A DNA stretch of 64,000 nucleotides from Bacteroidaceae bacterium (GCA_045634305.1 JAZQZZ010000039.1:3818-67817), one strand, 5' to 3'; positions 24,390 to 53,721 are shown, numbered from the stretch's first letter. Numbers and translations: made by a program. Notes: generated by a model from the sequence alone, not told the origin.

Positions 24390-24408
24390 AATCTAAATAA
24401 TTGTAAAG

Positions 24409-26394: not shown

Positions 26395-26420
26395 TGGAGA
26401 TAGCTACATATATATTTGCT

Positions 26421-26612
26421 GAATGACACCACTCTGCAGCCCGAGGTAAAACCATACTTCTTTGTCAAGGACTATCTTGGCAGTATGCGCTCATACCGCG
26501 TTTCTCCACCATTGACCCCTTGGCCGAGAAGTACTACCACCTCTCGCCCTACGCCTACTGCGCCGGAGACCCGGCGAACCTTGTAGACCCGGACGAGTTG
26601 ATAGGAATCTGA
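26421..26612 (+). pseudogene. Rhs core-end remnant lacking a toxin domain (contains homology block copy 2, 26466..26597)
   Basis: ..LQPEVKPYFFVKDYLGSMRSYR in one frame, then IDPLAEKYYHLSPYAYCAGDPANLVDPDELIGI-stop in another. The stop falls 4 codons after the DPD motif. Confidence 0.65.
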
Positions 26613-26692
26613 GAAATAACAAACAACATGAAATAGTTATCAAACAAAATGACCCGAATTCAATTTTTAAATCTATAATTATTAATTAATCT

Positions 26693-27268: not shown

Positions 27269-27543
27269 AATTGTATAAAGAATGTTATTGGATAAAGTTC
27301 GACAACAGCAAATGGTCACGCGAAGCTGCGACAAAGTTGCAGCCACGTGGGTTGCAAAAAGTTGCTGTTGTCAAAGCTCGACTGGAGCAAAGAAGATGCT
27401 GAGTAAAGCATAAAAGAGCCATAACATATGGACTAGGACGCATTTTTTGAAATGTGTCCTAGTTAATTTTTGTAATACCGCAAACCAACGATACTGTAGC
27501 TGTGTTATCACTCATATTTCGTAACCTTTAAAACAGGATAACT

Positions 27544-29001
27544 ATGTCTACATTAACAAAAACCGTAAAAATGGGTGTGGCGACATTGGCAATCATGAAC
27601 GTCACAGCTGTCGTGTCGCTGCGCGGATTGCCAGCCGAGGCCGAATATGGAATTAGTTCGGCATTCTATTATCTGTTTGCTGCACTTGTGTTCCTTATTC
27701 CAACATCGTTTGTGGCAGCCGAACTTGCAGCAATGTTCCAGGACAAGCAAGGTGGTGTGTTCCGCTGGGTGGGCGAAGCGTTCGGCAAACGTCTAGGCTT
27801 TGTCGCCATATGGCTGCAGTGGGTTGAGAGTACCATATGGTACCCCACAGTATTGACCTTCGGTGCCGTGTCGCTCGCGTTCATTGGAATGAACGACACT
27901 GCCGACATGTCACTGGCGTCGAACAAGTTCTACACCCTTGTGGTGGTGCTTGCCATCTACTGGATTGCAACATACATCTCACTCAAGGGACTCGGTTGGG
28001 TGAGCAAGGTGGCAAAGGTGGGCGGTCTAATAGGTACCATCATACCGGCTGCGTTGCTTGTGTTGCTTGCCATCATCTACCTGATTGGCGGCGGCAAGTC
28101 GCAGATGGACTTCGGAGGTGACTTTTTCCCGGACATCACAAAACTCGACAACCTTGTGCTCGCATCGGGAATATTCCTTTTCTATGCCGGAATGGAGATG
28201 ACCGGTATTCACGTGAAGGACATGGAGAACCCCAGCAAGAACTACCCGAAGGCGGTGTTCTTGGGTGCCATAATAACAGTGCTCATCTTTGTACTTGGCA
28301 CATTCTCACTTGGCATCATCATTCCACAGAAGGACATAAACCTCACACAGAGCCTGCTCGTTGGCTTTGACAACTACTTCAAGTTCATAAGGATGTCGTG
28401 GTTGTCGCCAATCATTGCCATAGCGCTTGCATTCGGTGTGCTTGCGGGAGTGCTCACGTGGGTATCCGGTCCATCAAAAGGTATTTATGCTGTGGGAAAA
28501 GCCGGTTACCTGCCGCCGTTCATGCAAAAGAGCAACAAGCTTGGCGTGCAGAAGAACATCCTGCTCATTCAGGGCGGCGTGGTAACACTCTTGAGCCTGC
28601 TGTTCGTAATCATGCCATCGGTGCAGAGTTTCTATCAGATTCTGTCACAGCTCACAGTGCTGCTCTATCTTATAATGTACCTTCTTATGTTTGCTGCAGC
28701 CATCTATCTGCGCTATAATATGAAGGATGCACCACGCCCATTCCGTCTGGGCAAGAGCGGAAACGGCCTCATGTGGCTTGTTGCGGGTGTGGGATTCCTT
28801 GGCAGTTTGCTTGCCTTTGTGCTCAGTTTCATTCCACCGGCACAGATTGCCGTGGGAAGCAACGCGGTGTGGTATGCAGTACTCATAATAGGCTGTATTG
28901 TGGTGACAGGTGCACCGTTCGTCATCTATGCAATGCGTAAACCACATTGGGTTGACAAGGATTCACAGTTCGAGCCTTTCCATTTTGAGAAACAGAAATA
29001 A
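27544..29001 (+). CDS. APC-superfamily amino-acid permease (YjeM/GadC-like)
   Basis: 485 aa with about 12 TM segments. The N-terminal block AIMNVTAVVSLRGLPAEAEYG is typical of glutamate/GABA-antiporter-like APC members. Confidence 0.7.
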   Translation: MSTLTKTVKMGVATLAIMNVTAVVSLRGLPAEAEYGISSAFYYLFAALVFLIPTSFVAAELAAMFQDKQGGVFRWVGEAFGKRLGFVAIWLQWVESTIWYPTVLTFGAVSLAFIGMNDTADMSLASNKFYTLVVVLAIYWIATYISLKGLGWVSKVAKVGGLIGTIIPAALLVLLAIIYLIGGGKSQMDFGGDFFPDITKLDNLVLASGIFLFYAGMEMTGIHVKDMENPSKNYPKAVFLGAIITVLIFVLGTFSLGIIIPQKDINLTQSLLVGFDNYFKFIRMSWLSPIIAIALAFGVLAGVLTWVSGPSKGIYAVGKAGYLPPFMQKSNKLGVQKNILLIQGGVVTLLSLLFVIMPSVQSFYQILSQLTVLLYLIMYLLMFAAAIYLRYNMKDAPRPFRLGKSGNGLMWLVAGVGFLGSLLAFVLSFIPPAQIAVGSNAVWYAVLIIGCIVVTGAPFVIYAMRKPHWVDKDSQFEPFHFEKQK

Positions 29002-38530: not shown

Positions 38531-39715
38531 ATGACAAAATTCCTATACTCATTCAACTGGTGCATCGACACCAGAATAAAGTCCGAATACAAATCAAAGC
38601 CGCTGGGCTCCTTCACGCCGGTACAGACAGAGCATGGCACAATAACTGCAGTAGACAACCCCTACGACTCCTATACCAAAGGGCTCACTGCAATGTTGCG
38701 CATTGCCCTCAATAAAGAGAGCGTGGCAAGAATTCTGGGCGGAATGGAATTGCGCACATGCATGGTCGAAGAGATAAACCTCTATGCCGGATTCTGCGGA
38801 ATGCTCACCATTGAGATATTCGGTTCGGCCGGAGACACAGCCGCCGGCAATTTCAAGGAGTGCTACAACAGTGACATGATATCGTTCGCCACACAACTGC
38901 CAAGCAGCACAGGACATATTGCCGAACTGCTTGCCCCACTTGCCGACTACACCGACAAGACCGACGGATACCTGTGGGGACAACCCGAGACACTCCCCCA
39001 GTCGGGACTCACCGATGCCAGCGAGAGCTATATATACACCTATAACCTGTTCACCGACAGCGAAAGCGAATGTGCCTCATTGCTTGACACATTCGGCATT
39101 ACCGGCAACGCGCTGAGCATTGGCGGCAACAAGGTTTGGCAAGTATTTGCCAACTACATATGGCACACAGGCTGCAAGGCCGACTCCGCAGTGACTCATG
39201 AGCTGAATTTCTCCTACATCCCCGCGGCATGGGAAGTTCTCATATACGACTCGGGCACCATCTGTTGCAAGAACTTCCTCAGGAGCATCAATGATGACGT
39301 CGATGTCAAACCGGCTGTGATACGTGACATGATTTCACGTGACAACCTTATGTTGCTTGAAGTTGAACTATCAGAGCGCGAACAGGACTACGAGAAACAC
39401 CAGCTCACACAACGCTCGAAAAAGGAGTACGGCGCCGAACAGCGCAAATCCTCGTTTGTCAACTCACAGGAAATGCTCAAATACGCAATCAACGGCATGG
39501 AGTCAAAGAAACAGCAATATATATCACGCCTCACCGGTATCATACTTGCGTTCCTCACAGCCCTGTCGGTATATTCCGTTTTCAGTGACATATACGCTCT
39601 GATTACATCAAATGAAAAGACTATACATTTCAACAGCATATCCACAATGATGCTGTCTGCAGCAACGGTAATAATGGTAGCCGTGCTCTACCTCACCACG
39701 CGCAAAGAGAAATAA
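38531..39715 (+). CDS. Hypothetical membrane-anchored protein (soluble N-domain, coiled coil, two C-terminal TM helices)
   Basis: 394 aa. TM candidates are LTGIILAFLTALSVYSVF and ISTMMLSAATVIMVAVLYL. No catalytic motif recognised. Confidence 0.5.
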   Translation: MTKFLYSFNWCIDTRIKSEYKSKPLGSFTPVQTEHGTITAVDNPYDSYTKGLTAMLRIALNKESVARILGGMELRTCMVEEINLYAGFCGMLTIEIFGSAGDTAAGNFKECYNSDMISFATQLPSSTGHIAELLAPLADYTDKTDGYLWGQPETLPQSGLTDASESYIYTYNLFTDSESECASLLDTFGITGNALSIGGNKVWQVFANYIWHTGCKADSAVTHELNFSYIPAAWEVLIYDSGTICCKNFLRSINDDVDVKPAVIRDMISRDNLMLLEVELSEREQDYEKHQLTQRSKKEYGAEQRKSSFVNSQEMLKYAINGMESKKQQYISRLTGIILAFLTALSVYSVFSDIYALITSNEKTIHFNSISTMMLSAATVIMVAVLYLTTRKEK

Positions 39716-39736
39716 CCAACCCCAACCCGCAAAGTT

Positions 39737-42700
39737 ATGAAAAGATATGCCATCGCACTGTTGATGCTTTTTGCATCGCTCGGTACCACAGCACAAGTAA
39801 CAAACAATGCCATCAGTTTCGAGAGAAACGGCCGAGTATCATTGGGTACGCCACACAACAGCGGAGCAAACGTTACCACCTTGCAGCTATGGATCAACCC
39901 GCAACACTGGATTCCCGGAGCAAACATCATCACCTGGGGCAACAGCCTCAACATGCAGTTGGGAACACCAGGTGAGCTTATAATAGAAAGCAATGGCGAC
40001 ACTCTTTCATTCAGCGATACCAAGCTGACAACCGGCAATTGGGCGCATATCACGTTGCTTCTCGACGGCAACAGCCTCAGTATGCTTGTAAACAATGCCA
40101 ACCGACAGGACCGCACTCTGTCGGCAGCATTCGCCACACCCACAGCAGAGCCCATGTTGCTTGGTGGCGGTTTCCTTGGACGTATGGACGAGGTACGCAT
40201 GTGGGATTTCATACTCCCTGCCGACTACAACCGGTTCTGGAACAACACAATCGACAGTTTCAACCCACTGTGGAGCCACCTGACAGGCTACTGGAAATTC
40301 GACCAGACACGCCTTGAGAGTAACGTCTACGACTATAGCGGCAAAGGACATAACGGAACATTCAGTGCAAGCGGTGTTGAACGCACTCCGGTCACCGATA
40401 ACCCCGACTTCGTCTACCGCCGCAATCTCGCATACGCCGATTGCAGCCGTTTCTTTGACCGCGGCGTGCAGCATGGTCAGTACCTCAAAAGCAACGTCAT
40501 AAGCATTATTGGAGCAACTGCGCAAGCCGACGGCTCATTGAAATATAAGCAACCCGACAACAAGGGCAGCATCACCGGCGGTATCTACCTTGCCGAACAC
40601 AACGGACGCACTGGTGTGCTTGACCTTGCAGGCAATGGTGCACAGATGAACGTTGGTAAAGATGCACTCATCGCCTACAACAACAGCAACTATCTTGCAA
40701 GCACCACGGCCTACACCTTCATGACATGGCTATCTATTGACACATGGACACCGGGCGCATATCTTTTAATTAAAGAAAGTGACACAAACAACGGCATCTC
40801 ATTACGCATGGGTAATGCACAAGGCGAATTCATCTTGCGTTGCAACGGCTTGGAATTCACATATGCCACCACACTACAACTTAACAAATGGCATCACATA
40901 GGTTTCTCTACCAATGCAACCACACTTGGCAACGAGTTTGTCGTTGTATTTGACGAAACGATTGTCACACCTACCTACAGCCACACTACCGCAGCCACTA
41001 CCACGCTCACCGGTTTGCGCTCAACCGACTGCATCATTGGCGCAGGCATTGACGGCAAGCTCGACGAGACAATCACATGGTCGCAGAAGTTCGGTGCAAG
41101 CGACATTGTTGCACAGGGCAATACACCTGTTGAACCAGGCATTGGAAAAGCCATAACCGGAGCCTATTCACGCAGTGTCGATGGCATGTGGAAATATGAC
41201 ATTGCCGAGGACCTAGGACGCGACAGTTACTCAACCCCCGAGTGGTTCAGAATGATAAAGGCCACCTTCGAGGGTTACGAAGGAGCCCACGTAACCATAA
41301 GCATCGACAAATGGTCCGACGAGTTCTTTACCAAGATAAACAACAATGCCCAATACCGGGAAGCACTTGCCAACGCTATTTCACAGATGGGCAACGAGCC
41401 GTTCCTCGACGGTGTCGACTACGATTTCGAGTGGAACAACAACTGGAGCGGCATTGGTACCCTGTGCCAACTGGTACGCGCCAAACTGCACGACGGCAAG
41501 ATACAAGCCGTGTCGCCACATGAGCTCTACTACAACTTCCCTACCGACAAGATGCAGTATGTCGACTATTTCAACTTCCAGGACTATGGCCCCGGAAACA
41601 AGAACATATTCAACTTCAACAACTACAAGAACTTCTTTACCAAGGCAAAGAGCTACGGTTACCCTGTTGAAAAGATAATGCTCTCATATGCAACCACCAC
41701 AAGCGGTGCCATGTACAGCAACGGCAGCCGCCCGGCAAACACACATCCCGAATTCTACCCCACAGGCTGGCGTTCAATGCCATATGAAACATTCGAGTAC
41801 AGCCAGAACAGCTACGACGTAGGCGATGGACTTACACGCTACTTTACCGGCATGGAACAGGTATGGCTACGCAGTGAATATATGAACAACAACGGCTGCG
41901 CAGGAATATTCTATTGGGACATGGGCAACGACACACGCGATTGCAACGACCCGCGCTCACTTGCCACATATGCATCGTTTGCCATAAACAGCAACGTACA
42001 GAAAATTGTTGAAAAGATTGAAACTGCAGCCGAAGCCCCTGCAGAATATGAATATGAAGAGAGTGCCACCGGATACTATCGCATACGCGGAGCCGGTGAC
42101 GGACACACAACGCACTATCTCTACCAGAACGGCGACGAACTCTATTCCGGCGAAAAAGGAGGCGAGGTGCGCAGCATATTCTGCTTTGAGGAGGCAGCCG
42201 AAAGCAACACGTTCTATCTGAAAGCCAACGACGGCCGTTACATCCAGGACCGCAGCAAGTTGCAGACAAAGCAATCCATCTACCGCTTCGATACCACCCC
42301 TGTATCATACAGCATCAAGGGCGAGGAATACGACTACCCCGAGGGACATTACTGCCTTGAGCAGACCTACTATACCCCCGGCAAACCCGATTTCACCGAC
42401 GTGCAGCGATGCCTCAAATGCAACGGCAACAACGAGGGCGCATCAACCTGGGGACCTTGGACTGCGGCATCACATTGGGCAATAGAGCCTGTCTATGGAT
42501 ATGACGTCTACACTGTTACACTGGCAGACATCGATGCCATCACATGTCTCATTCCCGGCTACACCGGCAGCAACATGATATACAACGGAGGTTTCATAGT
42601 CCTGACTGCTGGAGGAGAGATAACAGCCGATGAGATAGCCGCGGCCAGTGGCGAGGAGATAACCGTTAGCATTGACAAGAACGCAAAGAGCATTGCCGTT

Positions 42701-42844
42701 GCAGCCGGCGCTACAGGCATTGACAGGATGACTGAGCAAAGAACAGAGAGCACAGAGATTCACGACCTCACAGGCCGCCGTGTAGAAACCATCACAGCTC
42801 CCGGCGTTTACATTATAAATGGGAAAAAGAGAGTTGTAAAGTAA
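39737..42844 (+). CDS. LamG-domain / GH18-like glycosidase, T9SS cargo
   Basis: 1035 aa with a signal peptide. LamG-type block GNWAHITLLLDGNSLSMLVNN...GRMDEVRMW. GH18 catalytic motif DGVDYDFEW (DxxDxDxE; Glu codon at 41429..41431). The C-terminus EIHDLTGRRVETITAPGVYIINGKKRVVK is T9SS-CTD-like. Confidence 0.7.
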   Translation: MKRYAIALLMLFASLGTTAQVTNNAISFERNGRVSLGTPHNSGANVTTLQLWINPQHWIPGANIITWGNSLNMQLGTPGELIIESNGDTLSFSDTKLTTGNWAHITLLLDGNSLSMLVNNANRQDRTLSAAFATPTAEPMLLGGGFLGRMDEVRMWDFILPADYNRFWNNTIDSFNPLWSHLTGYWKFDQTRLESNVYDYSGKGHNGTFSASGVERTPVTDNPDFVYRRNLAYADCSRFFDRGVQHGQYLKSNVISIIGATAQADGSLKYKQPDNKGSITGGIYLAEHNGRTGVLDLAGNGAQMNVGKDALIAYNNSNYLASTTAYTFMTWLSIDTWTPGAYLLIKESDTNNGISLRMGNAQGEFILRCNGLEFTYATTLQLNKWHHIGFSTNATTLGNEFVVVFDETIVTPTYSHTTAATTTLTGLRSTDCIIGAGIDGKLDETITWSQKFGASDIVAQGNTPVEPGIGKAITGAYSRSVDGMWKYDIAEDLGRDSYSTPEWFRMIKATFEGYEGAHVTISIDKWSDEFFTKINNNAQYREALANAISQMGNEPFLDGVDYDFEWNNNWSGIGTLCQLVRAKLHDGKIQAVSPHELYYNFPTDKMQYVDYFNFQDYGPGNKNIFNFNNYKNFFTKAKSYGYPVEKIMLSYATTTSGAMYSNGSRPANTHPEFYPTGWRSMPYETFEYSQNSYDVGDGLTRYFTGMEQVWLRSEYMNNNGCAGIFYWDMGNDTRDCNDPRSLATYASFAINSNVQKIVEKIETAAEAPAEYEYEESATGYYRIRGAGDGHTTHYLYQNGDELYSGEKGGEVRSIFCFEEAAESNTFYLKANDGRYIQDRSKLQTKQSIYRFDTTPVSYSIKGEEYDYPEGHYCLEQTYYTPGKPDFTDVQRCLKCNGNNEGASTWGPWTAASHWAIEPVYGYDVYTVTLADIDAITCLIPGYTGSNMIYNGGFIVLTAGGEITADEIAAASGEEITVSIDKNAKSIAVAAGATGIDRMTEQRTESTEIHDLTGRRVETITAPGVYIINGKKRVVK

Positions 42845-42891: not shown

Positions 42892-43479
42892 ATGAACAAC
42901 ATCAGCGAAAAGCACCCGTTGGAGCCATTCCTGCCACAGAATGCAAGGATTCTGATGCTTGGCAGTTTCCCGCCGCCGCAAGCCAAATGGTCAATGCACT
43001 TCTTCTACCCTAACTGGATAAACGACATGTGGCGCGTGATGGGATTGCTGTTCTTCGGCGACAGACACCATTTTGAGCTGAAAGACGAAAAACGTTTCGA
43101 CAAAGAAGCTGTTGTGGAGTTCTGTACCCGGCAGGGAATAGCACTCTACGACACAGCGTGCGAGGTTGTGAGACTAAAGGAAAACGCATCCGACAAATTC
43201 CTTGAGATAAAGACAGCGACCGACATTGCAGCCCTGCTCACCAAACTGCCACAATGCACAGCCATTGTCACCACAGGGCAGAAAGCCACCGACACCATCG
43301 TGGAGAAATTTGGCTGCGTCACACCACTGATGGGCGACAGAACCACCCTGCACATTGCGGGACGCGAGTACAATTTCTGGCGCATGCCATCAACCTCCCG
43401 CGCCTATCCCCTCGCCCTAGAAAAGAAAGCCGCCCACTACCTCAAAATGCTAAAATTTGAAGGCATATCAAGCCTTTAA
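42892..43479 (+). CDS. Uracil-DNA glycosylase superfamily protein (family-6 / deoxyinosine glycosylase-like)
   Basis: 195 aa. The block RILMLGSFPPPQAKWSMHFFYPNWINDMWRVMG is typical of this UDG family. Confidence 0.6.
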   Translation: MNNISEKHPLEPFLPQNARILMLGSFPPPQAKWSMHFFYPNWINDMWRVMGLLFFGDRHHFELKDEKRFDKEAVVEFCTRQGIALYDTACEVVRLKENASDKFLEIKTATDIAALLTKLPQCTAIVTTGQKATDTIVEKFGCVTPLMGDRTTLHIAGREYNFWRMPSTSRAYPLALEKKAAHYLKMLKFEGISSL

Positions 43480-43497
43480 AATAAAAAATAACAAAGT

Positions 43498-43530
43498 TTT
43501 GCATTTATTATGTTTTTTTCTTTATATTTG
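43498..43530 (+). promoter_or_regulatory. Bacteroidetes sigma-A-type promoter of the five-gene operon
   Basis: TTTG (43498..43501), a 21-nt spacer, then TATATTTG (43523..43530), about 100 nt upstream of the ATG at 43629. Confidence 0.55.
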
Positions 43531-43628
43531 CGTATTGGCAATGTTGCACCCCGATATGCAAGGTTGCCAACATTTTGATTGTCAAACCATTAGAATCATT
43601 TCAAAGTATAAAAACATTATTTGATAAT

Positions 43629-44147
43629 ATGAGAAACTATTTCTACATCATTGCCATTTTGTCGCTTATGGTTTCATGTACATCCACTCTATCTGAACCA
43701 TCAAACAAGAAAGAATATATTGAGGATGCACGTAATTTCTACAATCAGGTAGAGGATAACAAGAACACCATCAATCACAAGCTTTGGAGCGAATATAAGA
43801 ACATGAATGATAAGATTATTGGAGAGTACTATCTTCGTTTCAGAGAAGAACTTGTAGCCAGGGAGATTGTATTCATTGGCAACCAGAACAAGAAATTCAA
43901 AAAATATTATTCTGACTACAAAACGCGATATGATTTGGTTGATGAATCTCTAAAAAACGATGGTGATTCAATCAAGATTGCAAGGAAAATTAAGAAATAC
44001 CATGAAAATGGGCAAGAAAATGAATTAACTCAATATCTTGAGGATGCCATTGCTTTGGGTGGCAAAACCAAGATTTATCCCAAAGCAATACTTTTTGACC
44101 TTGAAATTGACGAAGAATACAGCTACCTTTGGGGAGAAGAATGGTAA
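43629..44147 (+). CDS. Small lipoprotein, function unknown (operon gene 1)
   Basis: Start chosen at the ATG at 43629. MRNYFYIIAILSLMVSCTS is a lipoprotein signal with Cys. The remainder is Lys/Glu-rich and helical. The track ORF starts at a TTG at 43575. Confidence 0.55.
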   Translation: MRNYFYIIAILSLMVSCTSTLSEPSNKKEYIEDARNFYNQVEDNKNTINHKLWSEYKNMNDKIIGEYYLRFREELVAREIVFIGNQNKKFKKYYSDYKTRYDLVDESLKNDGDSIKIARKIKKYHENGQENELTQYLEDAIALGGKTKIYPKAILFDLEIDEEYSYLWGEEW

Positions 44148-44171
44148 TAACAAACTAATAAAAAATAATAT

Positions 44172-45287
44172 ATGAATTATAAAGCTATTATCGCAATTCT
44201 GTCACTGTGCTTTGCTGCGCCCACAATAACTGTAAATGCGCAAGAGACGAACGACAAGCAGTTTTATGTCTATCTTTGGGATGTGACACTCTCTATGCTT
44301 GGTCCAGAAAGAGGAGGTGTAGAGGATGTCTGGGACAGCACCAAAGAGTGGCTGATAAACGAAATCAAGTCTAGAAAGACTAACCCTGGCGACACAATCG
44401 TCGTTTGCCCTTTCCAAGAGTGCATTATCAGTGGTGATACAGGTTTGAAAAGGATCGATGCAAAAACCGTCGTGCCAAGACCATACGTATCCGATGCAAC
44501 AGGTGAACCAATGACTTATGACTCCCCATGGAAATTTCCGGCAACTCCCAACGGCAAGCGCGAACTTATAAAGAAAATTGAATCGTTCGTGCAACCGCAT
44601 CACGGCAAAACGAACCTTTATGACCCATTAATGGATGCAAAAAGGGATTATGTCGACATGACCAAGCATAGTACAACCATATACATGCTTACAGATGGTA
44701 TAGATGATTTCAATGAGAATACAGACAAGTCATTCATCAAGGAAATAAATGAAAAATGGAGTAAAAGAGACCCGTTGCTTATCTATATCCGTTTAACAGA
44801 TGCTGCATGCGCCGACATAAAACCTAGTGACAATGTTGAGATAATCAATCCCAAAGAAAGGCTAATTGAAATTTCGGCAACAGTAGCCGGTAAATATAAT
44901 TTTATTGACGCTGTAAAAGAAAACAGAAAGACACAAACAATCAACATCAATCAGGTACAAAAAAACTATGAGCTACCTGAAGGCATAAAAATAAAAGTGA
45001 CATCAGACAATAATCCTTATGTCAAGATTGACGATGTATGCGAAGTCGTTGACGGAAAAATCGACGTCAAACTCAAATACAACCAACAGACTGTTGACGA
45101 AAACATATACAGCAACAGCACCATTGACCTGAACTTCAATGTTGTCAACGACAAGTTGATTAGCGATGATGGATATGTTTATATCATCTCTCTCTCAAAT
45201 ACAAGTTCAAAGACACTTGAGTTGGTAAACAAAGTTCAAAAGACTTTGAAAATCAAGCTTAGAAAAGCTGAACCCATTGAAGAATAA
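44172..45287 (+). CDS. Exported von Willebrand factor A (vWA) domain protein with MIDAS motif (operon gene 2)
   Basis: 371 aa with signal peptide MNYKAIIAILSLCFAAPTITVNAQ. MIDAS elements: FYVYLWDVTLSM (DxTxS, 44280..44294), HHGKTNLYDPL and TIYMLTDGIDD (Asp175 codon at 44694..44696). C-terminal beta-rich domain. Confidence 0.7.
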   Translation: MNYKAIIAILSLCFAAPTITVNAQETNDKQFYVYLWDVTLSMLGPERGGVEDVWDSTKEWLINEIKSRKTNPGDTIVVCPFQECIISGDTGLKRIDAKTVVPRPYVSDATGEPMTYDSPWKFPATPNGKRELIKKIESFVQPHHGKTNLYDPLMDAKRDYVDMTKHSTTIYMLTDGIDDFNENTDKSFIKEINEKWSKRDPLLIYIRLTDAACADIKPSDNVEIINPKERLIEISATVAGKYNFIDAVKENRKTQTININQVQKNYELPEGIKIKVTSDNNPYVKIDDVCEVVDGKIDVKLKYNQQTVDENIYSNSTIDLNFNVVNDKLISDDGYVYIISLSNTSSKTLELVNKVQKTLKIKLRKAEPIEE

Positions 45288-45302
45288 ATAAAAAAGATAA
45301 AA

Positions 45303-46208
45303 ATGAAAGCATTACTTCGTATTATACCACTTTTAGTGATAGCAATACTCGTTTCTTGTGGTCAGGACAAAGACAGGTATGCATTGTTCGGTGAGACCAA
45401 AGCCTATGAGTCATGGGGATGGCACGAATACACTCCCCAGAAAATGGAGCGTTATCTGGATCTTGAATGGAACGATGCCTGCAAGAATTGGCTCAAGGAC
45501 AAGCCAATTACAATAGCAGTGTATACCACTGATGATTATGGTGACGAGATTCCCGCAGAAGACGTAAAGATTTACAAGAACGATGTACTTTGTGAAGGAA
45601 ATAGTTTCACTGTCACCACAGATGAGACCGAAGTAAAATTCGCACTTGAGTTCAAGAAAAGTGCAAAGGACGGTGAACACATTTACTCTTTGAAATACAT
45701 ACCCGAAGGGGGAGAAACAGAGATTCTTGACGAGATTTCTTTCGAAAGTTTCGGTGATGACAACAAGATGATGGCCGACAAAGAGACCATTATGAACCCA
45801 TTGAAAGAAAAAGTCATATGGGCAACATGTATTTTCTTGACTGTTAGTATATTATGGTATATTCTGTCACGTTTTGTATTTTGGCGTAAAACACCATTCT
45901 CAAAGGTTACAATCACATACGAGAACGGTTCAGAAAGAACTATCAGAATGAAGGGTGGCAACAGCCTTGTATGTACAGCAAACACAAAGACCAAGGATTC
46001 TTTCTTTGCAAAGCTTTTCAAAGGAAGCAGACCATACGAATATCACGATTTCTGGACGTCACCGGTTACTATCGGCCGCGGCACAAGAAGCAACAGCATA
46101 TCGTTCACCGGAACAAGACGATATTCAATAAATGGTGAAAGGATACGACGTAGTCCAATTGAAATAATAAACGAGAACGGCGAAAAAGCTACAATACAAA
46201 CAACGTAA
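45303..46208 (+). CDS. Bitopic membrane protein: lipoprotein-type signal, about 150-aa outside domain, one TM, about 107-aa cytoplasmic tail (operon gene 3)
   Basis: 301 aa. MKALLRIIPLLVIAILVSCG signal. TM VIWATCIFLTVSILWYILSRFVFW (45813..45884). The tail contains PVTIGRGTRSNSISF...YSINGERI. Confidence 0.55.
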   Translation: MKALLRIIPLLVIAILVSCGQDKDRYALFGETKAYESWGWHEYTPQKMERYLDLEWNDACKNWLKDKPITIAVYTTDDYGDEIPAEDVKIYKNDVLCEGNSFTVTTDETEVKFALEFKKSAKDGEHIYSLKYIPEGGETEILDEISFESFGDDNKMMADKETIMNPLKEKVIWATCIFLTVSILWYILSRFVFWRKTPFSKVTITYENGSERTIRMKGGNSLVCTANTKTKDSFFAKLFKGSRPYEYHDFWTSPVTIGRGTRSNSISFTGTRRYSINGERIRRSPIEIINENGEKATIQTT

Positions 46209-46245
46209 TCAACAAAAAAATAATAACAACTTAATTCATTTAACT

Positions 46246-49179
46246 ATGGCAAGATTAGTTATAAGACCATCAATTTATATCGGCCTTGGCGGCACCGGTA
46301 TATTGGCGATTTCGCAGACAAAGAAAATGTACGAACAGGAGTTTGGTGAGGGCAATATCCCCAGACAGATTGCTTTCATTGCAATTGACTTTGACACAAC
46401 CGCTCCCAAAAATTCAAATCTGGCAACAGATATAAGCACAGATTTCATGCAAATACCTGATGGTATTGATCCATTGGGTTTCTATCAGGAAGGGCTGGAA
46501 CAGGGCGAGTACAAATGGATGTTCCCCTGCAACGCAGGCTACATCGCACGTAAGATTGTTGATGGTGCAAGCCAGGTAAGAACAACCGGCCGTTTGTATA
46601 CAGAGCTAATCTATTCACACATTGAAGCAAGAATCAGAAACAGCTTTAACAGAGTACAGAACATTGCAAACGAGACAACTGGTGGTGTCGTAGATGTACA
46701 CATGGCAATGTCTATTGCCGGTGGTACAGGTGCCGGTTCATTCATGACAGTTGCGCACATCATCAAGGAGGCATATCCAACGAATGTGAACCTTTATGGC
46801 TATGGTGTAAATTGGGGGGTATTCAGAGCGATGGACCCAAGCGGAAACAAGACACCACGTGTAATTTCAAATTCCTATGCCGCAATTATGGATATTGATT
46901 ACACAATGCATGCTACACCAGCAGAGCCCAAGAAATTGTCTCTCAATAATGAAGAGAAAACAATCAAGAGACCTATTTTTGACACATTCTATGTTATTGA
47001 CAACAAGACAAACCAGGGCGGTGTTGTAAACAGCGTGACAGAGTTGTGCGAAGTTGTTGGTACAAGCATGTATCTATCCGGAAATAAATTGGGTAACAAC
47101 ATTGCATCAATTGCAAGCAACGTTGGTTGGTCAAATGGCTCATATAATATAAAGAACAAGAAAGGTTGGGTACACGGTTTAGGTGCTTGTCAGGTAGTAT
47201 ATAAAGGCGATGAACTTGCAAAAGTATACAAATACAAAGTAGCAAAAGTTCTTATCCAGAAGTTGATTTCACAGGGATTTGAAATTGAGCAGGCTGCTAT
47301 CAACTGGACCATGCTGAGCGATGTAATGATTCGAGAGGATGGCGACCAGTTCAACTACCTCATTGATTCTATTTACCTTGGATCTGAAATCAATAGGCTG
47401 AAAGCTCCTCAGCTCGACATTAATGACACTGACGCCAAGACAAAGGACAATGCTGAAAAATACATCAATGACATGAGCGGCTTCACAAGCGAAGAGAAAA
47501 TCAAGGCTCGCAAAGTCGCTATTGAAGAAGCATTGAAAAAGGAAGTAGAGAAGTATCTTAAAGAAGAGAACGGAATTGGCAATGCAATCACATTCCTTAC
47601 CAAACTTACTTCACTTTGCGCACAATACAAGAATGAAATGCAGGATGAGTACCTTACCATTGACAAGAAAATAACCGATCTTCATAAAAAGCTCGAAGAG
47701 GGATACAAAGAGTATGAGGATAAGAGAAATGGATTTAAATGGAAATTCAGAAGTCTCGAGACAAAAGAAGCCATTCTTGAGGAGTGCATTACTGTAACAG
47801 CAAATACAATCCTTAAACAGAAATTCGAGGCACAGCGCCGCAGAGTAGCCGAGAGTATCTTCAATGAACTTATTGAGTTGATTAAGACATTGAAGACAGG
47901 TGTTGAAAACACAATGACAACACTTAACAACATTGCATTATCATACAGCAATGAATTGGAAAAACTTCAGAAGGACACAACATCTGCACGTCAGTTTGAG
48001 TACGACCTATCTCAAATAGAGCGCGTAAACATGACACTTACTGCTGAGGATGCGGCAAGTTTGCTCGTCAGCGACTTCGTTAGTACACTCAACAAATCCG
48101 TTTCTGAGTACTCACAACATGATTTGTCAGAAGCAATCCTTACATACACTGATACTCTTGAAAGAACAAAGAGATATCGCGAGACACTTGTACTTGATGT
48201 AATCGACAAGTTGAGTGAAGTGGAATGGGAGAATTTGATAGAGACAATCACATGCAAATCAGGTCTATTGCTTGACATTAACAACAAGGGTCAGAAGATT
48301 GCCGGTTCACCAGCAAACCAGAAGATGGTATCCAACTTCATGGTTGCATACTATGGCAAGGACAACGCAACCCTTACGCGTTTCCAGAAAGACCCGGCAT
48401 TCATGCACAATATATTGAACAAACATTGGGTTTCAATGGATACCGACATCATGAGACAGAGGGTAATCTTCTACCGAGTTGATGGTGCTATTATCCCTTA
48501 CTGTCTGAATGAGTTCCCTGATCATGTAATCGAATCCGGCTACAACAAGGATGTACGCAACAAGCATACATTCAACCCACACTACGATAGCACCATCTTT
48601 GATTGGATGCAAGCCAATGACTTCAAGTTGAAACCAGAAATGTCTAACGAGGCTATGTTCTATTGGGTATGCGGTCACATCTTCGGTTGGGACGATATCA
48701 CAGAAACAGAGAGAATCATGGAAAAGGATGAACGCGGTGTTGTTGTCAAAGAGATAGACAAAGAGAACAAGCCTCATAGAAAGTTTATCAGTTGCCAGAA
48801 GGGAAGCTACTTCTATTGGGATGAAGAGACAATGTCACGTCCAGGCACAAAGAAGTGGGTTCCACTTGAAGAAGCTGGAACAAAACGTCGTGATACAGCG
48901 TTCAACTACTTCAAGACACGAGTTCTCCCCGAGAAGAAGGACCTATTCTATTCACTTATCAAGAGTGAAGTCAGCAGTAAGGGTATCAGCTACTATCAGG
49001 GTATTATTGATGGCATCGTAAGTCGCGGCATTGATGACTATATCAACCAGCTCGTATGTTCAGACAAGAGCAGCATCACATACTCTCAAAAGGGCAACGG
49101 TGGTGAGTTGCAAGCTATCATGGCTGAATTTGAATATTTGAGCAGAGATTTGAAGAACACATTGAGCAATCTTAATTAA
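46246..49179 (+). CDS. Tubulin/FtsZ-superfamily GTPase-like protein with long C-terminal extension (operon gene 4)
   Basis: 977 aa with no signal or TM. IGLGGTG (46279..46299). AGGTGAGS (46717..46740) matches the tubulin signature [SAG]GGTG[SA]G. DGASQVRTTGR lies between them. The C-terminal roughly 600 aa are coiled-coil-rich and unassigned. Confidence 0.7.
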   Translation: MARLVIRPSIYIGLGGTGILAISQTKKMYEQEFGEGNIPRQIAFIAIDFDTTAPKNSNLATDISTDFMQIPDGIDPLGFYQEGLEQGEYKWMFPCNAGYIARKIVDGASQVRTTGRLYTELIYSHIEARIRNSFNRVQNIANETTGGVVDVHMAMSIAGGTGAGSFMTVAHIIKEAYPTNVNLYGYGVNWGVFRAMDPSGNKTPRVISNSYAAIMDIDYTMHATPAEPKKLSLNNEEKTIKRPIFDTFYVIDNKTNQGGVVNSVTELCEVVGTSMYLSGNKLGNNIASIASNVGWSNGSYNIKNKKGWVHGLGACQVVYKGDELAKVYKYKVAKVLIQKLISQGFEIEQAAINWTMLSDVMIREDGDQFNYLIDSIYLGSEINRLKAPQLDINDTDAKTKDNAEKYINDMSGFTSEEKIKARKVAIEEALKKEVEKYLKEENGIGNAITFLTKLTSLCAQYKNEMQDEYLTIDKKITDLHKKLEEGYKEYEDKRNGFKWKFRSLETKEAILEECITVTANTILKQKFEAQRRRVAESIFNELIELIKTLKTGVENTMTTLNNIALSYSNELEKLQKDTTSARQFEYDLSQIERVNMTLTAEDAASLLVSDFVSTLNKSVSEYSQHDLSEAILTYTDTLERTKRYRETLVLDVIDKLSEVEWENLIETITCKSGLLLDINNKGQKIAGSPANQKMVSNFMVAYYGKDNATLTRFQKDPAFMHNILNKHWVSMDTDIMRQRVIFYRVDGAIIPYCLNEFPDHVIESGYNKDVRNKHTFNPHYDSTIFDWMQANDFKLKPEMSNEAMFYWVCGHIFGWDDITETERIMEKDERGVVVKEIDKENKPHRKFISCQKGSYFYWDEETMSRPGTKKWVPLEEAGTKRRDTAFNYFKTRVLPEKKDLFYSLIKSEVSSKGISYYQGIIDGIVSRGIDDYINQLVCSDKSSITYSQKGNGGELQAIMAEFEYLSRDLKNTLSNLN

Positions 49180-49187
49180 TTGACAAA

Positions 49188-52100
49188 ATGAACTATTGCG
49201 TACATTTCTTCGTTGGTAAGGAATTTGAGACATTATTGGAAGGCATTGCATACGACCTTCTCAAAAACGACCTTTCGGCACTTAAATTCAACAAGTATTA
49301 CTTAATTGAATCAGGAGTAGATGGTCATTTGAATTATCGCGAACTAAAAGTTTGTGTTAAAGACAGTAAAGAAGAAGGAAACGTTGAATTCACAACAATA
49401 GATTGTCTTAACAACAATATTGCCTTATCCTGGGCTAACGTTGAACAGGGCAATAGTAATGATAAAGAGAATTTGTTTACTGGTATTTTCGACAGTGTAC
49501 TTACTGTCGAAAATGCCAGAAAACAAAGCTTGCTCAACACTTTTATATACTTCCCATTATACAAGGAAGAAAGCATCGGCCTAGTAGGCAACCTGTGCAA
49601 AAATATCACGACTTCCTCAAAAAGTAATCTGACAGAAGTTACATTCATTACATTTGGTGATGACATGTGCAAGGTTATTGAAGAGGATTACAAGACAAAG
49701 CCTACAACAACCAAAAACCTTGACAAATTTGACAAGATTCGCAATGAATTGGGTCTCGTTGAACAGAAAAGCCACCTTGTATTCATGCACGACAGTACCA
49801 CTAGCGGTTTGGCGCTTGGTATGGACAAGGCCAAGTTTACAGACATGTTGGCACAGCTTGCAATTCTGATGTCAACATCGTACAAGGAGATTTTCCCAAT
49901 GATAAACAGCGAGGCAGAGGCTACATGTATCGGTTTCTCTTCGCTTTACTTCAGTGAATATCTATTCATCAATTACCTTGTCAATAAGGCAACACTCGCT
50001 GCAATAGACAGTGCATCGGTAAATGACGAAAAGATAGATATAAACAAGACATTCCAGACAACTAATGAAATGTTGAGAAGACGAGACAACATTCTCTCAA
50101 CATTCCTCAACAAGCACAAGACCGATTGTGCAGAAGGTAGCCACAAGGAAATAGCAGAGGAGATAGAAGACATCCTGAAATCAGTTTCTGCCAAATTCCA
50201 GGAGACAAAGAATATGACAGAAAAAGCAGCTATACTTGCAGCACTGCTTTCAAAAACCGATTATGAATTGTTTGCAAACGCTGTATACAATTCAGAAAAC
50301 ATCAACCTCAGTGACTTGTACAACGAGGCTATCGAATTCTTCATCACAGAGGACGTTGCAAAATTCTATAAGGAGGGGGAAGATGAACTTATCAACCCAT
50401 TAAAGGAGTTGAAAATCATTAATCAGAAAATTCTTAACTCATCGAGCCAGATACGCGAACTTGAAAAGAGTTCTTCAGAACTTGAAAAACTCATCGACGA
50501 GAGTGGCAAAGCACAGGAGTGTTTTGTAAGCAATGAGATTACCATTGACGACAAAAAATTCCGTTTGCTTCCATCTGTTGAAGAAGAACCCCTACAGGAA
50601 TGCTACGAAGAACATGAAGTAAGCATTGAGAGTATCGACTTGAGAGGAAACTTCAGCCCAATAAAGAGCCAGGGACAGCAGGGCTCATGCGTTGCGTTCA
50701 CATTGACATCTATTTTTGAATATATGATGAAAGTGAGCAAGCAGGAAGATTGCGACCTCAGCGAAGCCTTCCTGTATTACAACGCCAGACATCTTGACCA
50801 GGCAGATGACGTGAGCACACAAGAGGATAGCGGTTCACGCTACAAACCATCGATGGATTCTCTTGTCAAATATGGTATCGCCCTGGAAAAAGTGTGGCCA
50901 TACCATGAGGAGATATATACACAAAAGCCATCGAACGAAGCATACGAAGATGCAGGCAAGAGAAAACTCAGAAAAGCATTGAGCGTAAAGCTTAATTCAG
51001 ACGCAATAAAATCGGCATTGTCAGACGGCTACCCTGTTGCAGGTAGTTTTGCATTGTTCCCCAGCTTTTTTGAAGCCGGAGCATATATCCCCATACCTTC
51101 ACAGGAGGAGATTGAGCAAACAAAGGCAAATGCCAACAACCCCGAGAAGCAACTAAAGCATGGACATCACGCCATGGCCATTGTAGGTTTCAGCGACCAG
51201 TTGAACATGTTCCTTGTCCGTAACTCATGGGGCGAGGATTGGGGTGATAAAGGATATTGCTACATACCATATGCTTATATCAACAATCCCGAGCTATTCA
51301 CTTTTGCTGCTATTATTACAGAAGTGGATTCCCTTGAGACAAAGATGCCCGAGCTGCGTGAAATTCCCGCACTCAAGATTGACAGTGACGATATTCTTAT
51401 CCGTTTCTATATTACAAAGGCTGCGCTTGACAACGAAAGACGTGCACTATGCTTGTACAAGAAACAGAGGGATGAATGGCAGGCATATTTCGAGGCTTTG
51501 AAAATAAAATATGCAAATTCCAATGACAATAGAAGATTCGTCAATGCTAACACTGAATTCCACAACAATGAAATTGTTAGGTTGGAGAATGAAAACAAAG
51601 AGGCAGAAACCAGACTCGAAGGTATAAAGAAAGAGCTTAACAAATCTAATTTGATAGCCATCATCAAAATGATAGCTTTTGTTGTTCTGACATTCGTTGG
51701 CGGAATAGCTATTAACAAATGGCTGGTTAGTATACATAACAATGCAAAGGACAAACTGCTCAGCGCAATCAGTAATGACAATTATGGTGGTTTCGCAGAA
51801 AAGGTTGTAAAATTCCTTGACGCTGAAAACGGTGGTACAATCCAATTGAGCTGGTGGGTAATGATACTCATTTCTGCTGTTATAATCGGATTTATCATCT
51901 ATAGGCAAAGTTCAAAATGGAAGGTCTGGAGAGAAGAACGCGATACATTGTATGTAAAGATTGAGAGAAACGAAAAAGAGATTGCCACAAGAAAGAGCAC
52001 AATAAAGACACTGAAATTCTCGGCATTCGCAGCATGGACAGTAATAACAAACCTTACAACCATGCAAGAGAAATTGCTGAAGATGTACAACAGTATCATA

Positions 52101-52691
52101 TCACTGATAAACAATTTGAGAGTTTGGTACAAGGAAGTTGAACAGAACAACAATAAGATTAGCCTTGCTTCAACATTCTCTAACATATCACTCTTATCAG
52201 AGGATATTCTTGACAACTATTTCAACAACACTTTAAAGAATACTGGTGAATGCGATGTTGACCTATGTGAAGAGATTGACAAGTTTGCAATTGACGCAGA
52301 ATTCCTTGCAAACTTTAAGCAACAGCTACGCAATAAGATCATCACTAAGTTACAGGAACATCTGGAACGTAAGGAGTTCTCTGTAACAGAGCATATGGTC
52401 AAGAATACATATAGCGACATCGCCATAAAGGTCGACTATGATATAATAAGCGATTTACAAAGGAACTCGAACCTATTTGCATACGTTGAAACTTTGAAAC
52501 AAGATGCAAAGGCAGCCATTGCACCAGACTTAGAGAACTACAGACACGATGTGTTGGACAAATTAGCACCAGGCACCACATTGTTAGAGTCAACAAACAA
52601 ATACCGAATGCAAGTCGTAAATGTACGCCTTCTCAAGTACAGCGAGATTGTTGCCTTCAGAGGAGCTACTGTAAGCGGCAAAAAGAAATGA
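49188..52691 (+). CDS. Membrane-anchored papain-family (C1) cysteine protease with large N- and C-terminal unknown domains (operon gene 5)
   Basis: 1167 aa. IDLRGNFSPIKSQGQQGSCVAFT (Gln495, Cys501 codon at 50688..50690). KHGHHAMAIVGF (His661 at 51168..51170). LVRNSWGEDWGDKGYCYIPY (Asn679 at 51222..51224). TM hairpin LIAIIKMIAFVVLTFVGGIAI / LSWWVMILISAVIIGFIIY (about 51649..51903). No signal peptide. Confidence 0.8.
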   Translation: MNYCVHFFVGKEFETLLEGIAYDLLKNDLSALKFNKYYLIESGVDGHLNYRELKVCVKDSKEEGNVEFTTIDCLNNNIALSWANVEQGNSNDKENLFTGIFDSVLTVENARKQSLLNTFIYFPLYKEESIGLVGNLCKNITTSSKSNLTEVTFITFGDDMCKVIEEDYKTKPTTTKNLDKFDKIRNELGLVEQKSHLVFMHDSTTSGLALGMDKAKFTDMLAQLAILMSTSYKEIFPMINSEAEATCIGFSSLYFSEYLFINYLVNKATLAAIDSASVNDEKIDINKTFQTTNEMLRRRDNILSTFLNKHKTDCAEGSHKEIAEEIEDILKSVSAKFQETKNMTEKAAILAALLSKTDYELFANAVYNSENINLSDLYNEAIEFFITEDVAKFYKEGEDELINPLKELKIINQKILNSSSQIRELEKSSSELEKLIDESGKAQECFVSNEITIDDKKFRLLPSVEEEPLQECYEEHEVSIESIDLRGNFSPIKSQGQQGSCVAFTLTSIFEYMMKVSKQEDCDLSEAFLYYNARHLDQADDVSTQEDSGSRYKPSMDSLVKYGIALEKVWPYHEEIYTQKPSNEAYEDAGKRKLRKALSVKLNSDAIKSALSDGYPVAGSFALFPSFFEAGAYIPIPSQEEIEQTKANANNPEKQLKHGHHAMAIVGFSDQLNMFLVRNSWGEDWGDKGYCYIPYAYINNPELFTFAAIITEVDSLETKMPELREIPALKIDSDDILIRFYITKAALDNERRALCLYKKQRDEWQAYFEALKIKYANSNDNRRFVNANTEFHNNEIVRLENENKEAETRLEGIKKELNKSNLIAIIKMIAFVVLTFVGGIAINKWLVSIHNNAKDKLLSAISNDNYGGFAEKVVKFLDAENGGTIQLSWWVMILISAVIIGFIIYRQSSKWKVWREERDTLYVKIERNEKEIATRKSTIKTLKFSAFAAWTVITNLTTMQEKLLKMYNSIISLINNLRVWYKEVEQNNNKISLASTFSNISLLSEDILDNYFNNTLKNTGECDVDLCEEIDKFAIDAEFLANFKQQLRNKIITKLQEHLERKEFSVTEHMVKNTYSDIAIKVDYDIISDLQRNSNLFAYVETLKQDAKAAIAPDLENYRHDVLDKLAPGTTLLESTNKYRMQVVNVRLLKYSEIVAFRGATVSGKKK

Positions 52692-52745
52692 GAAAGTATA
52701 AATAAATGCGCAATGTTTGCAAACTGATAGGCGCAACAACATCAC

Positions 52746-52776
52746 GGGACCGGCTTTATAAAGCCGGTCCCCTTTT
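52746..52776 (+). terminator. Rho-independent terminator of the five-gene operon
   Basis: gggaccggcttt-at-aaagccggtccc followed by ctttt. Confidence 0.7.
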
Positions 52777-52825
52777 GTTATAGGCAAAAAACCGTAAACG
52801 AGTCACATATTCAATAAAATAATAA

Positions 52826-52833
52826 TATATTTG
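52826..52833 (+). promoter_or_regulatory. Bacteroidetes -7 box (TATATTTG) for 52879..53721
   Basis: TAnnTTTG match 46 nt upstream of the ATG. Confidence 0.4.
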
Positions 52834-52878
52834 CGCAAGGATAGAAATTTTAGACTGAACGCATAAACACAAGCACAT

Positions 52879-53721
52879 ATGTCACTATTCAATTGGTTAA
52901 AAGGACTTTTTAGTGGAAAGTCGATAAAAGGGAGCAACTCTACGAGCACAAAGACTATAACTCCGCAGCCAAAGGAGCGCAATATTACGCCATCACACCA
53001 TGCAAGGCACAAGGAGTACAACGCCGGTTCGGCAAAACGTCTGTCGGGGAGCATATATGTGCTTGCGGTATTTGCCGGTGACGGGCATTGGAGCAGAGCC
53101 GGGAAGGAGAAGTTGCTTAACGAGCTGTACAAGGCCGAAAAATGGATAAGGAAAGAGGCTGCACGCTATGGCAAGAGCGTGAGTTTCAAACATGGGACAT
53201 ACGGTCTCGACAAGACCATCAACGTGCATGTTGCTCCGGGACATGGTACCGGCAACGAGGATTGCCGTGTCGCGCACAAGGTTCTCGGTGCTGCAGGATA
53301 CAAGAGCATTGGGCAGTTCTATGAGTGGTTCAGGAAGAACGAGCAGTGCGACAATTGCCTGGTCATAGTCTTTGCACAGGGACGGGGACGTTCATATGCC
53401 GTACCCTACACTCCTGAATATAACGCGGACTATTTTACCGAGAGTTGTATAATCTACGAGGCTTACGAGGATGGCACGCCGCAAATTGCCTTTGGCATGG
53501 CACACGAGATGCTCCACTGCTTTGGTGCCGAAGACTTGTACGAAACGTTCGAAAAGCCACAGATTGTTGAGCAGGAGGCAAAGAAACGTTATGGCAACGA
53601 CGTGATGCACAGGTTCGACTATGAACTCGACAACCTTAAGATTGACGAGTTCACAGCATGGTGTGTGGGACTTACCGATACATGGAAGGATGAGTTCAAC
53701 ATTTTCCTGAAGAAGAAATGA
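52879..53721 (+). CDS. Putative cytoplasmic zinc metalloprotease (HExxH...GAEDxY)
   Basis: 280 aa with no signal peptide. Motif FGMAHEMLHCFGAEDLY (HEMLH = 53503..53517), reminiscent of the HExxHxxGxxDEY layout of M64-like zincins. It has its own promoter box, and its composition resembles the core genome. Confidence 0.5.
   Translation: MSLFNWLKGLFSGKSIKGSNSTSTKTITPQPKERNITPSHHARHKEYNAGSAKRLSGSIYVLAVFAGDGHWSRAGKEKLLNELYKAEKWIRKEAARYGKSVSFKHGTYGLDKTINVHVAPGHGTGNEDCRVAHKVLGAAGYKSIGQFYEWFRKNEQCDNCLVIVFAQGRGRSYAVPYTPEYNADYFTESCIIYEAYEDGTPQIAFGMAHEMLHCFGAEDLYETFEKPQIVEQEAKKRYGNDVMHRFDYELDNLKIDEFTAWCVGLTDTWKDEFNIFLKKK

Follow-up and report, generated by a model that had tools for sequence, protein, structure and literature searches.

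A papain-fold protease domain in the membrane scaffold of a Bacteroidales FtsZl1-vWA cassette

In a 64,000-nucleotide stretch of the genome of a Bacteroidaceae bacterium (GCA_045634305.1 JAZQZZ010000039.1:3818-67817; the window from here on), a single ATG-started frame of 1167 amino acids (aa) at 49188..52691 on the + strand encodes a protein with a domain of the papain family (C1) of cysteine proteases, here called the C1 protein. Its gene is the last of a five-gene, low-GC operon that also encodes, in this order, a DUF6565 lipoprotein (g0), a vWA protein (g1), an adaptor (g2) and the tubulin-like GTPase FtsZl1. We found that the C1 protein is a modular inner-membrane scaffold whose globular parts are all cytoplasmic, that its protease domain, judged by the conservation of the catalytic residues, is very probably an active enzyme, and that the cassette as a whole belongs, as a Bacteroidales variant, to the FtsZl1-vWA operons. 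For FtsZl1, a tubulin/FtsZ branch that diverged deeply, purely computational work has suggested membrane remodelling (2010, PMC2875224) or a part in conflict systems (2020, PMC7159879); the literature searched gives no experimentally established function. An earlier, sequence-only reading of this DNA had presented the protease as the likely effector of a conflict system. Its description of the catalytic site and of the topology is borne out below, whereas the place that it gave to the protease in the system needs revision.

The protease domain and its scaffold

The protease domain comprises residues 482-715 (50631..51332, +) and is assigned, from Pfam, PDB and Foldseek matches and from conservation, as a xylellain-type C1A papain-fold cysteine protease. 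Its four motifs start at residues 483 (IDLRGNFSPIK), 494 (SQGQQGSCVAF), 658 (HGHHAMAIVGF) and 677 (VRNSWGEDWG), and the checked catalytic codons lie at 50670-50672 (Q495), 50688-50690 (C501), 51168-51170 (H661) and 51222-51224 (N679), so that the papain-type catalytic set stands at the very residues named in the sequence-only reading. The profile search proposed there gave a match of residues 482-694 to Pfam PF00112 (Peptidase_C1) with E=2.8e-16 and 60.7 bits (cut-off 20.7); this match and the motif set together are far beyond chance. By sequence, the closest solved relative in the PDB was 3OIS, a cysteine protease from Xylella (E=1.2e-20), and cathepsin K came next.

The AlphaFold2 (AF2) model of the C1 protein, which used 36 homologues and reached a mean pLDDT of 82.5, consists from N to C of an alpha/beta domain, the C1 domain, a pair of very long helices that run through the hydrophobic segments, and an alpha/beta C-terminal domain (CTD). 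The top Foldseek match of this model was xylellain 3OIS (E=3.7e-14, TM-score 0.77, target-normalised), with cathepsins K, L and S next at TM-scores of 0.70-0.75. The domain thus shows the features of subfamily C1A: the family-model match (Pfam), the oxyanion Gln six residues before the Cys together with the His and the Asn (alignment), and the papain fold (AF2/Foldseek). C1B enzymes of the bleomycin hydrolase/PepC type were considered and ruled out, as PF03051 (Peptidase_C1_2) covers residues 657-710 only and Foldseek gave a TM-score of 0.28 for Gal6.

Q495, C501, H661 and N679 are unchanged across the first 36 homologues, with identity down to 21%. Representatives searched exhaustively (1.84 billion) and 80 genome loci together supplied 223 distinct full-length members, which were aligned to the domain profile. 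Among them, the Gln and the Cys are each conserved in 222 of 223 members, and the His, the Asn and the Trp that follows it in all 223. Such near-invariance argues for an enzyme under purifying selection rather than a pseudo-enzyme.

No hydrophobic N-terminal segment or signal peptide was found in the C1 protein by hydropathy, in line with what had been read from the sequence before. A motif search gave no ERFNIN or GNFD propeptide pattern, and Pfam gave no match to the I29 propeptide. The absence of all three rules out a cathepsin-L-like secreted zymogen. The earlier claim that the protein has no prodomain therefore holds for a propeptide of the cathepsin (I29) type; it does not hold in general, since a conserved segment of ~40 residues stands directly before the protease (residues 440-481; 50505..50630, +). 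Its consensus is C-x-[IV]-D-DG-F-x-F-x-DKKFRLLP-x3-EEPL-x-ETY, and with a mean column identity of 0.60 it ranks second in conservation within the protein, after the catalytic domain (0.71) and ahead of the N-domain (0.47) and the CTD (0.46). Foldseek aligned the model to xylellain over 282 columns (target length 268 residues), more than the catalytic domain alone, and several short viral C1 enzymes, which have an N-terminal extension of their own, align from query residue ~447. Part of the xylellain N-terminus reportedly blocks the active site. The conservation of residues 440-481, together with an alignment that reaches beyond the catalytic domain, makes it plausible that this segment is a candidate built-in latency element, comparable to a pro-region, and the description of the protease as unguarded is accordingly doubtful.

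The nearest counterparts of the domain, in both sequence and structure, are the short bacterial and viral C1A peptidases of the xylellain type (3OIS; Kordis 2023, PMC10380794). Like the C1 protein, they have neither a signal peptide nor a cathepsin-type propeptide, and the DLR entry strand is preceded by a short N-terminal extension in both. They differ in being stand-alone enzymes of ~250-290 aa, whereas the present domain is an insert within a membrane scaffold of 1167 aa that is encoded in a tubulin-like/vWA operon. Stand-alone short C1 peptidases that are 29-38% identical to the present catalytic domain occur on 140 viral contigs in IMG/VR (L088-L167), some of them labelled GVMAG (giant-virus metagenome-assembled genomes, MAGs), and several of these viral frames (248-280 aa) share a conserved N-terminal extension, YGW-x4-PD-x-RD.

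Behind the protease, residues 736-990 (51393..52157, +) form two long antiparallel helices with hydrophobic tips, as judged by AF2 and hydropathy. The modelled helices (736-862 and 889-990) pass straight through both hydrophobic segments, and we take this region to be a helical stalk with a membrane-inserted tip, as the model depicts it. The two transmembrane (TM) segments were placed by hydropathy at residues ~819-849 (TM1; nt 51642-51734, +) and ~882-909 (TM2; nt 51831-51914, +) and are followed by the CTD, which matches the TM hairpin described before. The position of the hairpin is maintained across the family by hydropathy, and the periplasmic loop between the segments (850-881) is variable, with a column identity of 0.11. 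In the 55 members with two clear segments, this loop has a median length of 12 aa (range 2-89), and the density of Lys plus Arg is 0.29 in the 15-residue outer flanks versus 0.10 in the inter-TM loop. Since the protein has no signal peptide, this positive-inside pattern places the hairpin in an N-in/C-in orientation, with the protease and the CTD in the cytoplasm. A cytoplasm-facing protease tethered by a hairpin, as the sequence-only reading had it, is thus upheld.

The remaining globular parts are less easily assigned. The N-domain (residues 1-400; 49188..50387, +) is cytoplasmic and of alpha/beta, Rossmann-like type by AF2 secondary structure. Its affinity is uncertain: the P-loop and MIDAS (metal ion-dependent adhesion site) positions are degenerate, and Foldseek with a model of the N-domain only gave weak matches (E>=4e-3) to vWA domains, small GTPases, G-alpha and CENP-M. 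The possibility that the N-terminal ~440 aa are a second, degenerate FtsZl1/tubulin domain was tried and rejected, as hhalign comparisons with FtsZl1, g1 and g2 gave E=0.032 at best (64 columns), short of significance; a tubulin-type fold is also disfavoured by the Foldseek result, with generic alpha/beta matches and no FtsZ or tubulin among them. The CTD (residues 991-1167; 52158..52691, +) is a cytoplasmic alpha/beta domain in the AF2 model, with no sequence relatives in Pfam or the PDB.

In an exhaustive phmmer search of the 1.84 billion representatives, the N-domain was found only in this architecture. The C1 domain is present in all 114 full-length representatives and the CTD in 113 of them. 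Five further clusters (P0088, P0135, P0166, P0169 and P0175) encode shorter proteins of 824-866 aa that combine the N-domain, the coiled coil and the two-TM hairpin and have no protease; four of the five match the CTD profile. One of these, P0169, is encoded on a metagenome contig (Ga0181612_172358; L086:133-7266) where the operon has its usual layout, with a g1-g2 fusion and FtsZl1 ahead of the scaffold gene. Such variants indicate that the scaffold is the conserved partner of FtsZl1 and that the C1 domain is a near-universal insertion in it. The protease can therefore no longer be treated simply as the likely effector: given the protease-less operons, it is an add-on to the scaffold and not an indispensable core. 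Effector swapping, with the N-domain joined to other effectors, was also considered and rejected, as the loss of the protease in these five clusters was the sole alternative found.

The cassette and related operons

The intergenic spacers of the operon measure 8-37 bp, and the spacer between the FtsZl1 gene and the C1 gene is the 8-bp one. An intrinsic terminator at 52746..52771 (+), with an 11-bp stem containing 8 G-C pairs and followed by a T tract, closes the operon and is the only strong one on the + strand within 43300-53000. The GC content of the cassette is 0.40 versus 0.48 for the rest of the window, and the GC content at third codon positions (GC3) is 0.37-0.46 versus 0.50-0.66 in the flanking genes. 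The cassette is thus co-transcribed, as predicted from the spacers and the single terminator, compositionally foreign and horizontally acquired. It also spans the inner membrane, with an exported half (g0, g1 and the g2 ectodomain) that the sequence-only reading had missed.

FtsZl1 (46246..49179, +), a cytoplasmic tubulin-like GTPase, matches PF13809 (Tubulin_2) with E=1.9e-50 and continues into a helical/coiled-coil tail of ~640 aa. Its nucleotide-binding loops T1 (GLGGTG, 13-18) and T4 (GGTGAG, 159-164) are conserved in 86 sequences, and hydropathy reveals no TM or hydrophobic segment. The GTPase to which the sequence-only reading refers, encoded just upstream of the C1 gene, is FtsZl1.

The g1 protein (44172..45287, +) is an exported, periplasmic vWA protein with a Sec signal peptide and an intact MIDAS site. 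In the 22 aligned orthologues, the signal peptide ends in A|Q throughout, and the MIDAS residues D37-x-T39-x-S41, T147 and D175 are invariant. The vWA identity is supported by the match of an orthologue (L003) to PF00092 (VWA, E=1.4e-8) and by a search of the PDB with the g1 profile, which matched vWA chains (4cn8, E=5e-7; integrin alpha-L I-domain).

The adaptor g2 (45303..46208, +) has no sequence relatives in Pfam or the PDB. Hydropathy and N-termini from ~75 loci, together with the alignment, describe a lipoprotein/single-TM protein with a lipoprotein signal and an invariant Cys19, an ectodomain of ~140 aa, one strongly hydrophobic TM segment (~170-194) and a conserved cytoplasmic tail of ~110 aa. 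In ~20 loci, a single protein of 575-680 aa unites g1 and g2, with signal peptide, vWA domain, ectodomain, TM segment and tail, and these fusions argue for a physical interaction of g1 and g2.

The first gene, g0 (43629..44147, +), encodes a small DUF6565 lipoprotein with a hydrophobic N-terminus and is a sporadic accessory to the cassette. Its real start is probably the ATG at 43629, giving a signal peptide and the lipobox MRNYFYIIAILSLMVSC; its GC content is 0.335. The family assignment goes through a cluster member (L010) that matches Pfam DUF6565 with E=2.9e-9 and to which g0 is 27% identical (BLASTP E=1e-8). Genes of the main DUF6565 cluster adjoin the cassette at 15 loci, and those of another DUF6565-like cluster at 5 more.

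The FtsZl1 family and the FtsZl1-vWA operons were defined by Makarova & Koonin (2010, Biol Direct 5:33; PMC2875224). The supplementary table of that paper has BACCAC_02056-02058 of B. caccae, among them a 1152-aa 'COG4870 cysteine protease', while the text never mentions a protease; within the literature searched, the B. caccae protease-bearing operon is undiscussed in later papers. The cassette shares with these operons a Tubulin_2/FtsZl1 gene with a coiled-coil tail beside a MIDAS-bearing vWA gene and membrane-associated partners. Both of the defining features are found here, namely the PF13809 gene, which is paired with the C1 gene in ~80 loci, and the vWA domain with an intact MIDAS. In contrast, the frequent partners of the FtsZl1-vWA operons, namely a diverged P-loop GTPase, a Ser/Thr kinase and OmpA-like proteins, are not part of this conserved core.

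A second group of comparable systems is formed by the DO-GTPase/GAP1-N2 systems (Kaur, Burroughs, Iyer & Aravind 2020, eLife 9:e52696; PMC7159879), which likewise combine tubulin-coiled-coil fusions, sometimes as two paralogues, with extracytoplasmic vWA domains, are membrane-proximal and have variable accessory genes. They differ in having been reported from Firmicutes and Actinobacteria, not Bacteroidetes, and in having no described C1 peptidase partner (PMC7159879). Pfam gave no match to their two defining components, DO-GTPase and GAP1, or to FNIII in any cassette protein at E<=0.01-1, the presence of GAP1 models in the Pfam copy used being unconfirmed. What is new in the present cassette is the hairpin scaffold that carries the C1 domain, along with the g2 adaptor, the topology across the envelope, the occurrence throughout Bacteroidales and the variants that lack the protease.

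Beyond the terminator lies a frame of 280 aa (52879-53721, +), which was considered as a further cassette member or as the remnant of a second FtsZl1 gene and was rejected on account of its position, its host-like GC3 (0.59) and the placement of its orthologue in the closely related locus L006 after an extra FtsZl1 paralogue. It holds an HExxH motif (AHEMLHCFGAEDLY), gave no match in Pfam, NCBIfam or PADLOC, has an orthologue in L006 only, and may be an uncharacterised metallopeptidase.

Distribution and genomic neighbourhoods

In a scan of one genome per species, relatives of the C1 protein were found in at least 574 genomes, nearly all of them gut or rumen Bacteroidales; the families represented are Bacteroidaceae, Muribaculaceae, Rikenellaceae/Alistipes, Prevotellaceae and Paludibacteraceae. 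One relative, 93% identical, comes from a Bacteroidaceae MAG (L006). The order g1-g2-FtsZl1-C1 is kept in ~80 loci, wherever the available flank suffices, and the flanking genes are unrelated between lineages. Over one pair of loci, the periplasmic components are 24-27% identical versus 40-45% for FtsZl1 and the C1 protein. A search for distant FtsZl1 relatives with other downstream genes returned proteins of the same clade only.

That the system is phage-borne was considered and rejected, as IMG/VR shows stand-alone short C1 domains only; a plasmid-borne system was likewise rejected, as the FtsZl1-vWA pairs in PLSDB are all distant ones, on replicons of Thermus, Meiothermus and Azospirillum. 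At one locus (L168:1-22952, contig ctg94888c of a 6.35-Mb genome), the cassette stands amid HTH_17 excisionase-like genes and genes for DUF3876 (conjugative transposon), DUF5712, an AAA_15/AAA_21 ATPase and a UvrD helicase, and looks like the cargo of an integrative element; two response-regulator/GerE genes lie directly upstream of it. AbiEii occurs nearby at one further locus, and a Pkinase gene is found near the cassette at L001 only.

Accessory genes vary between loci. A second FtsZl1 paralogue occurs in ~10 of 80 loci. In L006, this is a shorter gene (L006:13678-16011; 777 aa, PF13809 E=7e-41) that separates the C1 gene from its next neighbour; at the corresponding place in the window (52692-52878) the 2.4-kb gene is absent, and both sides are colinear. 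In 12 loci (e.g. L027:8320-9105), a gene for a signal-peptide-bearing Endonuclease_NS protein (DNA/RNA non-specific endonuclease) of ~261 aa (PF01223, E=1e-54) directly follows the C1 gene, and this may be an accessory output or a coincidental neighbour.

A second difference from L006 lies beside the cassette: of the region 38531-42844 of the window, a 394-aa gene with no Pfam match and a 1035-aa Laminin_G_3/GH18-like gene are largely missing or replaced in L006 (L006:1165-3708). Elsewhere in the window, a second patch, of still lower GC (~23000-27500; 0.30-0.44), contains four frames of 232, 189, 256 and 191 aa that have no Pfam match. It is flanked by genes for a pyruvate:ferredoxin oxidoreductase (19598-23296) and an amino-acid permease (27544-29001) and may likewise be an acquired island.

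Possible roles of the cassette

We propose that the cassette serves a conflict or envelope-stress response, in which sensing by the vWA/g2 module would lead to FtsZl1 assembly and release of a latent protease, proteolysis being the usual and not the obligatory output; we rate the chances of this as about even. It is favoured by the foreign composition, the patchy distribution, the variable accessory genes, the occasional mobile or defence neighbourhoods and the fast evolution of the exported parts, and also by Kaur et al. (2020), who predict conflict roles for systems of tubulin-coiled-coil and vWA proteins (PMC7159879). Under such a scheme, the periplasmic vWA/g2 module would capture a ligand or sense a perturbation of the envelope, and the signal would be relayed over the membrane by the TM segment and tail of g2 together with the hairpin of the scaffold. 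FtsZl1 would then assemble in a GTP-dependent manner on or with the scaffold, and the resulting clustering or conformational change would move the pre-protease segment aside and switch on the latent protease. The cytoplasmic targets to be cleaved could be proteins of the host or of an invader, or else parts of the system.

By analogy, a latent cytoplasmic protease as the output recalls the caspase-like/CHAT and the Lon- or trypsin-like effectors of bacterial immune systems, and sensing in the envelope with a relay to effectors in the cytoplasm recalls Zorya or Kiwa. The cassette differs from all of these in that it shows no homology and no PADLOC match to them, its protease belongs to another clan (papain-fold C1A), and its NTPase, of the tubulin superfamily, is unrelated. 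A defence-effector role for the protease is plausible.

Several observations weigh against a conflict or stress role. None of the 8 proteins searched against PADLOC-DB v2 gave a match at E<=0.01, the literature searched gives no phenotype or experimental report for the cassette, and most loci are flanked by housekeeping genes rather than defence islands. The term conflict system, used in the sequence-only reading, consequently goes beyond what is observed: the parts of the cassette come from recognised families, and its conflict role is still a prediction. Moreover, residues 440-481 resemble the N-terminal extensions of the viral enzymes and xylellain weakly in sequence, and the protease-less variants keep the same operon, so that proteolysis is not essential to the basic function. 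Finally, Makarova & Koonin read the FtsZl1-vWA operons, on grounds of context, as membrane-remodelling machinery (PMC2875224).

That last view leads to a different picture, namely a housekeeping or conditional machine for membrane remodelling or envelope maintenance, in which FtsZl1 filaments and the hairpin scaffold would shape or repair the inner membrane and the protease would have a regulatory or processing task such as FtsZl1 turnover or cleavage of the g2 tail. The lack of PADLOC matches, the mostly housekeeping flanks and the existence of protease-less variants all fit it, as do the stable inheritance of the locus between the window and L006 and the long helical stalk with its hydrophobic hairpin tip, an architecture of the membrane-shaping type. 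It accounts poorly for the patchy distribution and foreign composition, for the context resembling an integrative and conjugative element at one locus, for accessory genes that vary and include a signal-peptide-bearing nuclease, and for the fast divergence of the periplasmic parts; nor is there a tie to division or envelope genes, except for a chance adjacency of zapA and rny in this single lineage. On balance, we regard such a machine as possible, if on the unlikely side.

The succession of periplasmic sensor, TM relay and cytoplasmic protease would also suit trans-envelope signalling by regulated proteolysis, in which the C1 domain would be a site-specific signalling protease rather than a toxic effector and its substrates would be only components of the system or a dedicated regulator. 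The response-regulator/GerE genes directly upstream of the cassette in L168 point the same way, and the conserved pre-protease segment could be the cleavage site itself. Yet the cassette has no conserved transcription factor or anti-sigma factor, C1A enzymes are usually of broad specificity, and the tubulin-like GTPase would be left unexplained, which makes this explanation improbable.

Most characterised C1A peptidases are secreted, and the neighbours g0 and g1 are exported, which could suggest a periplasmic or surface protease that serves nutrition or virulence as the secreted enzymes do. We consider this highly improbable, given that there is no signal peptide, that ~820 soluble residues precede the first TM segment, that the positive-inside rule gives an N-in/C-in orientation in the 55 members, that the partner FtsZl1 is cytoplasmic, and that intracellular bacterial C1A enzymes without a signal peptide are known (PMC10380794).

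The conflict or envelope-stress response that we prefer can be put in a more specific form, as an envelope-spanning immune or stress sensor: the periplasmic MIDAS-vWA protein would detect a ligand derived from an invader or from damage, FtsZl1 would polymerise on the hairpin scaffold, and the proximity of the filament would activate the latent papain-fold protease. In all of these particulars the proposal is unlikely to be right. If it were true, a filament-activated protease would be a tubulin-driven analogue of inflammasome/caspase activation and would provide a first function for the orphan FtsZl1 branch.

The cassette is compact, with four core genes, widespread in human and animal gut microbiota, and present in the cultured strain B. 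caccae ATCC 43185. Its compactness, the cultured strain and the identified catalytic residues, with C501A as a clean test, make the function of FtsZl1 directly testable. Should the protease prove to be a triggered effector, dominant gut commensals would have in the cassette a defence or stress architecture of a new, protease-based kind; otherwise, the cassette would still define a new envelope-spanning cytoskeletal module.

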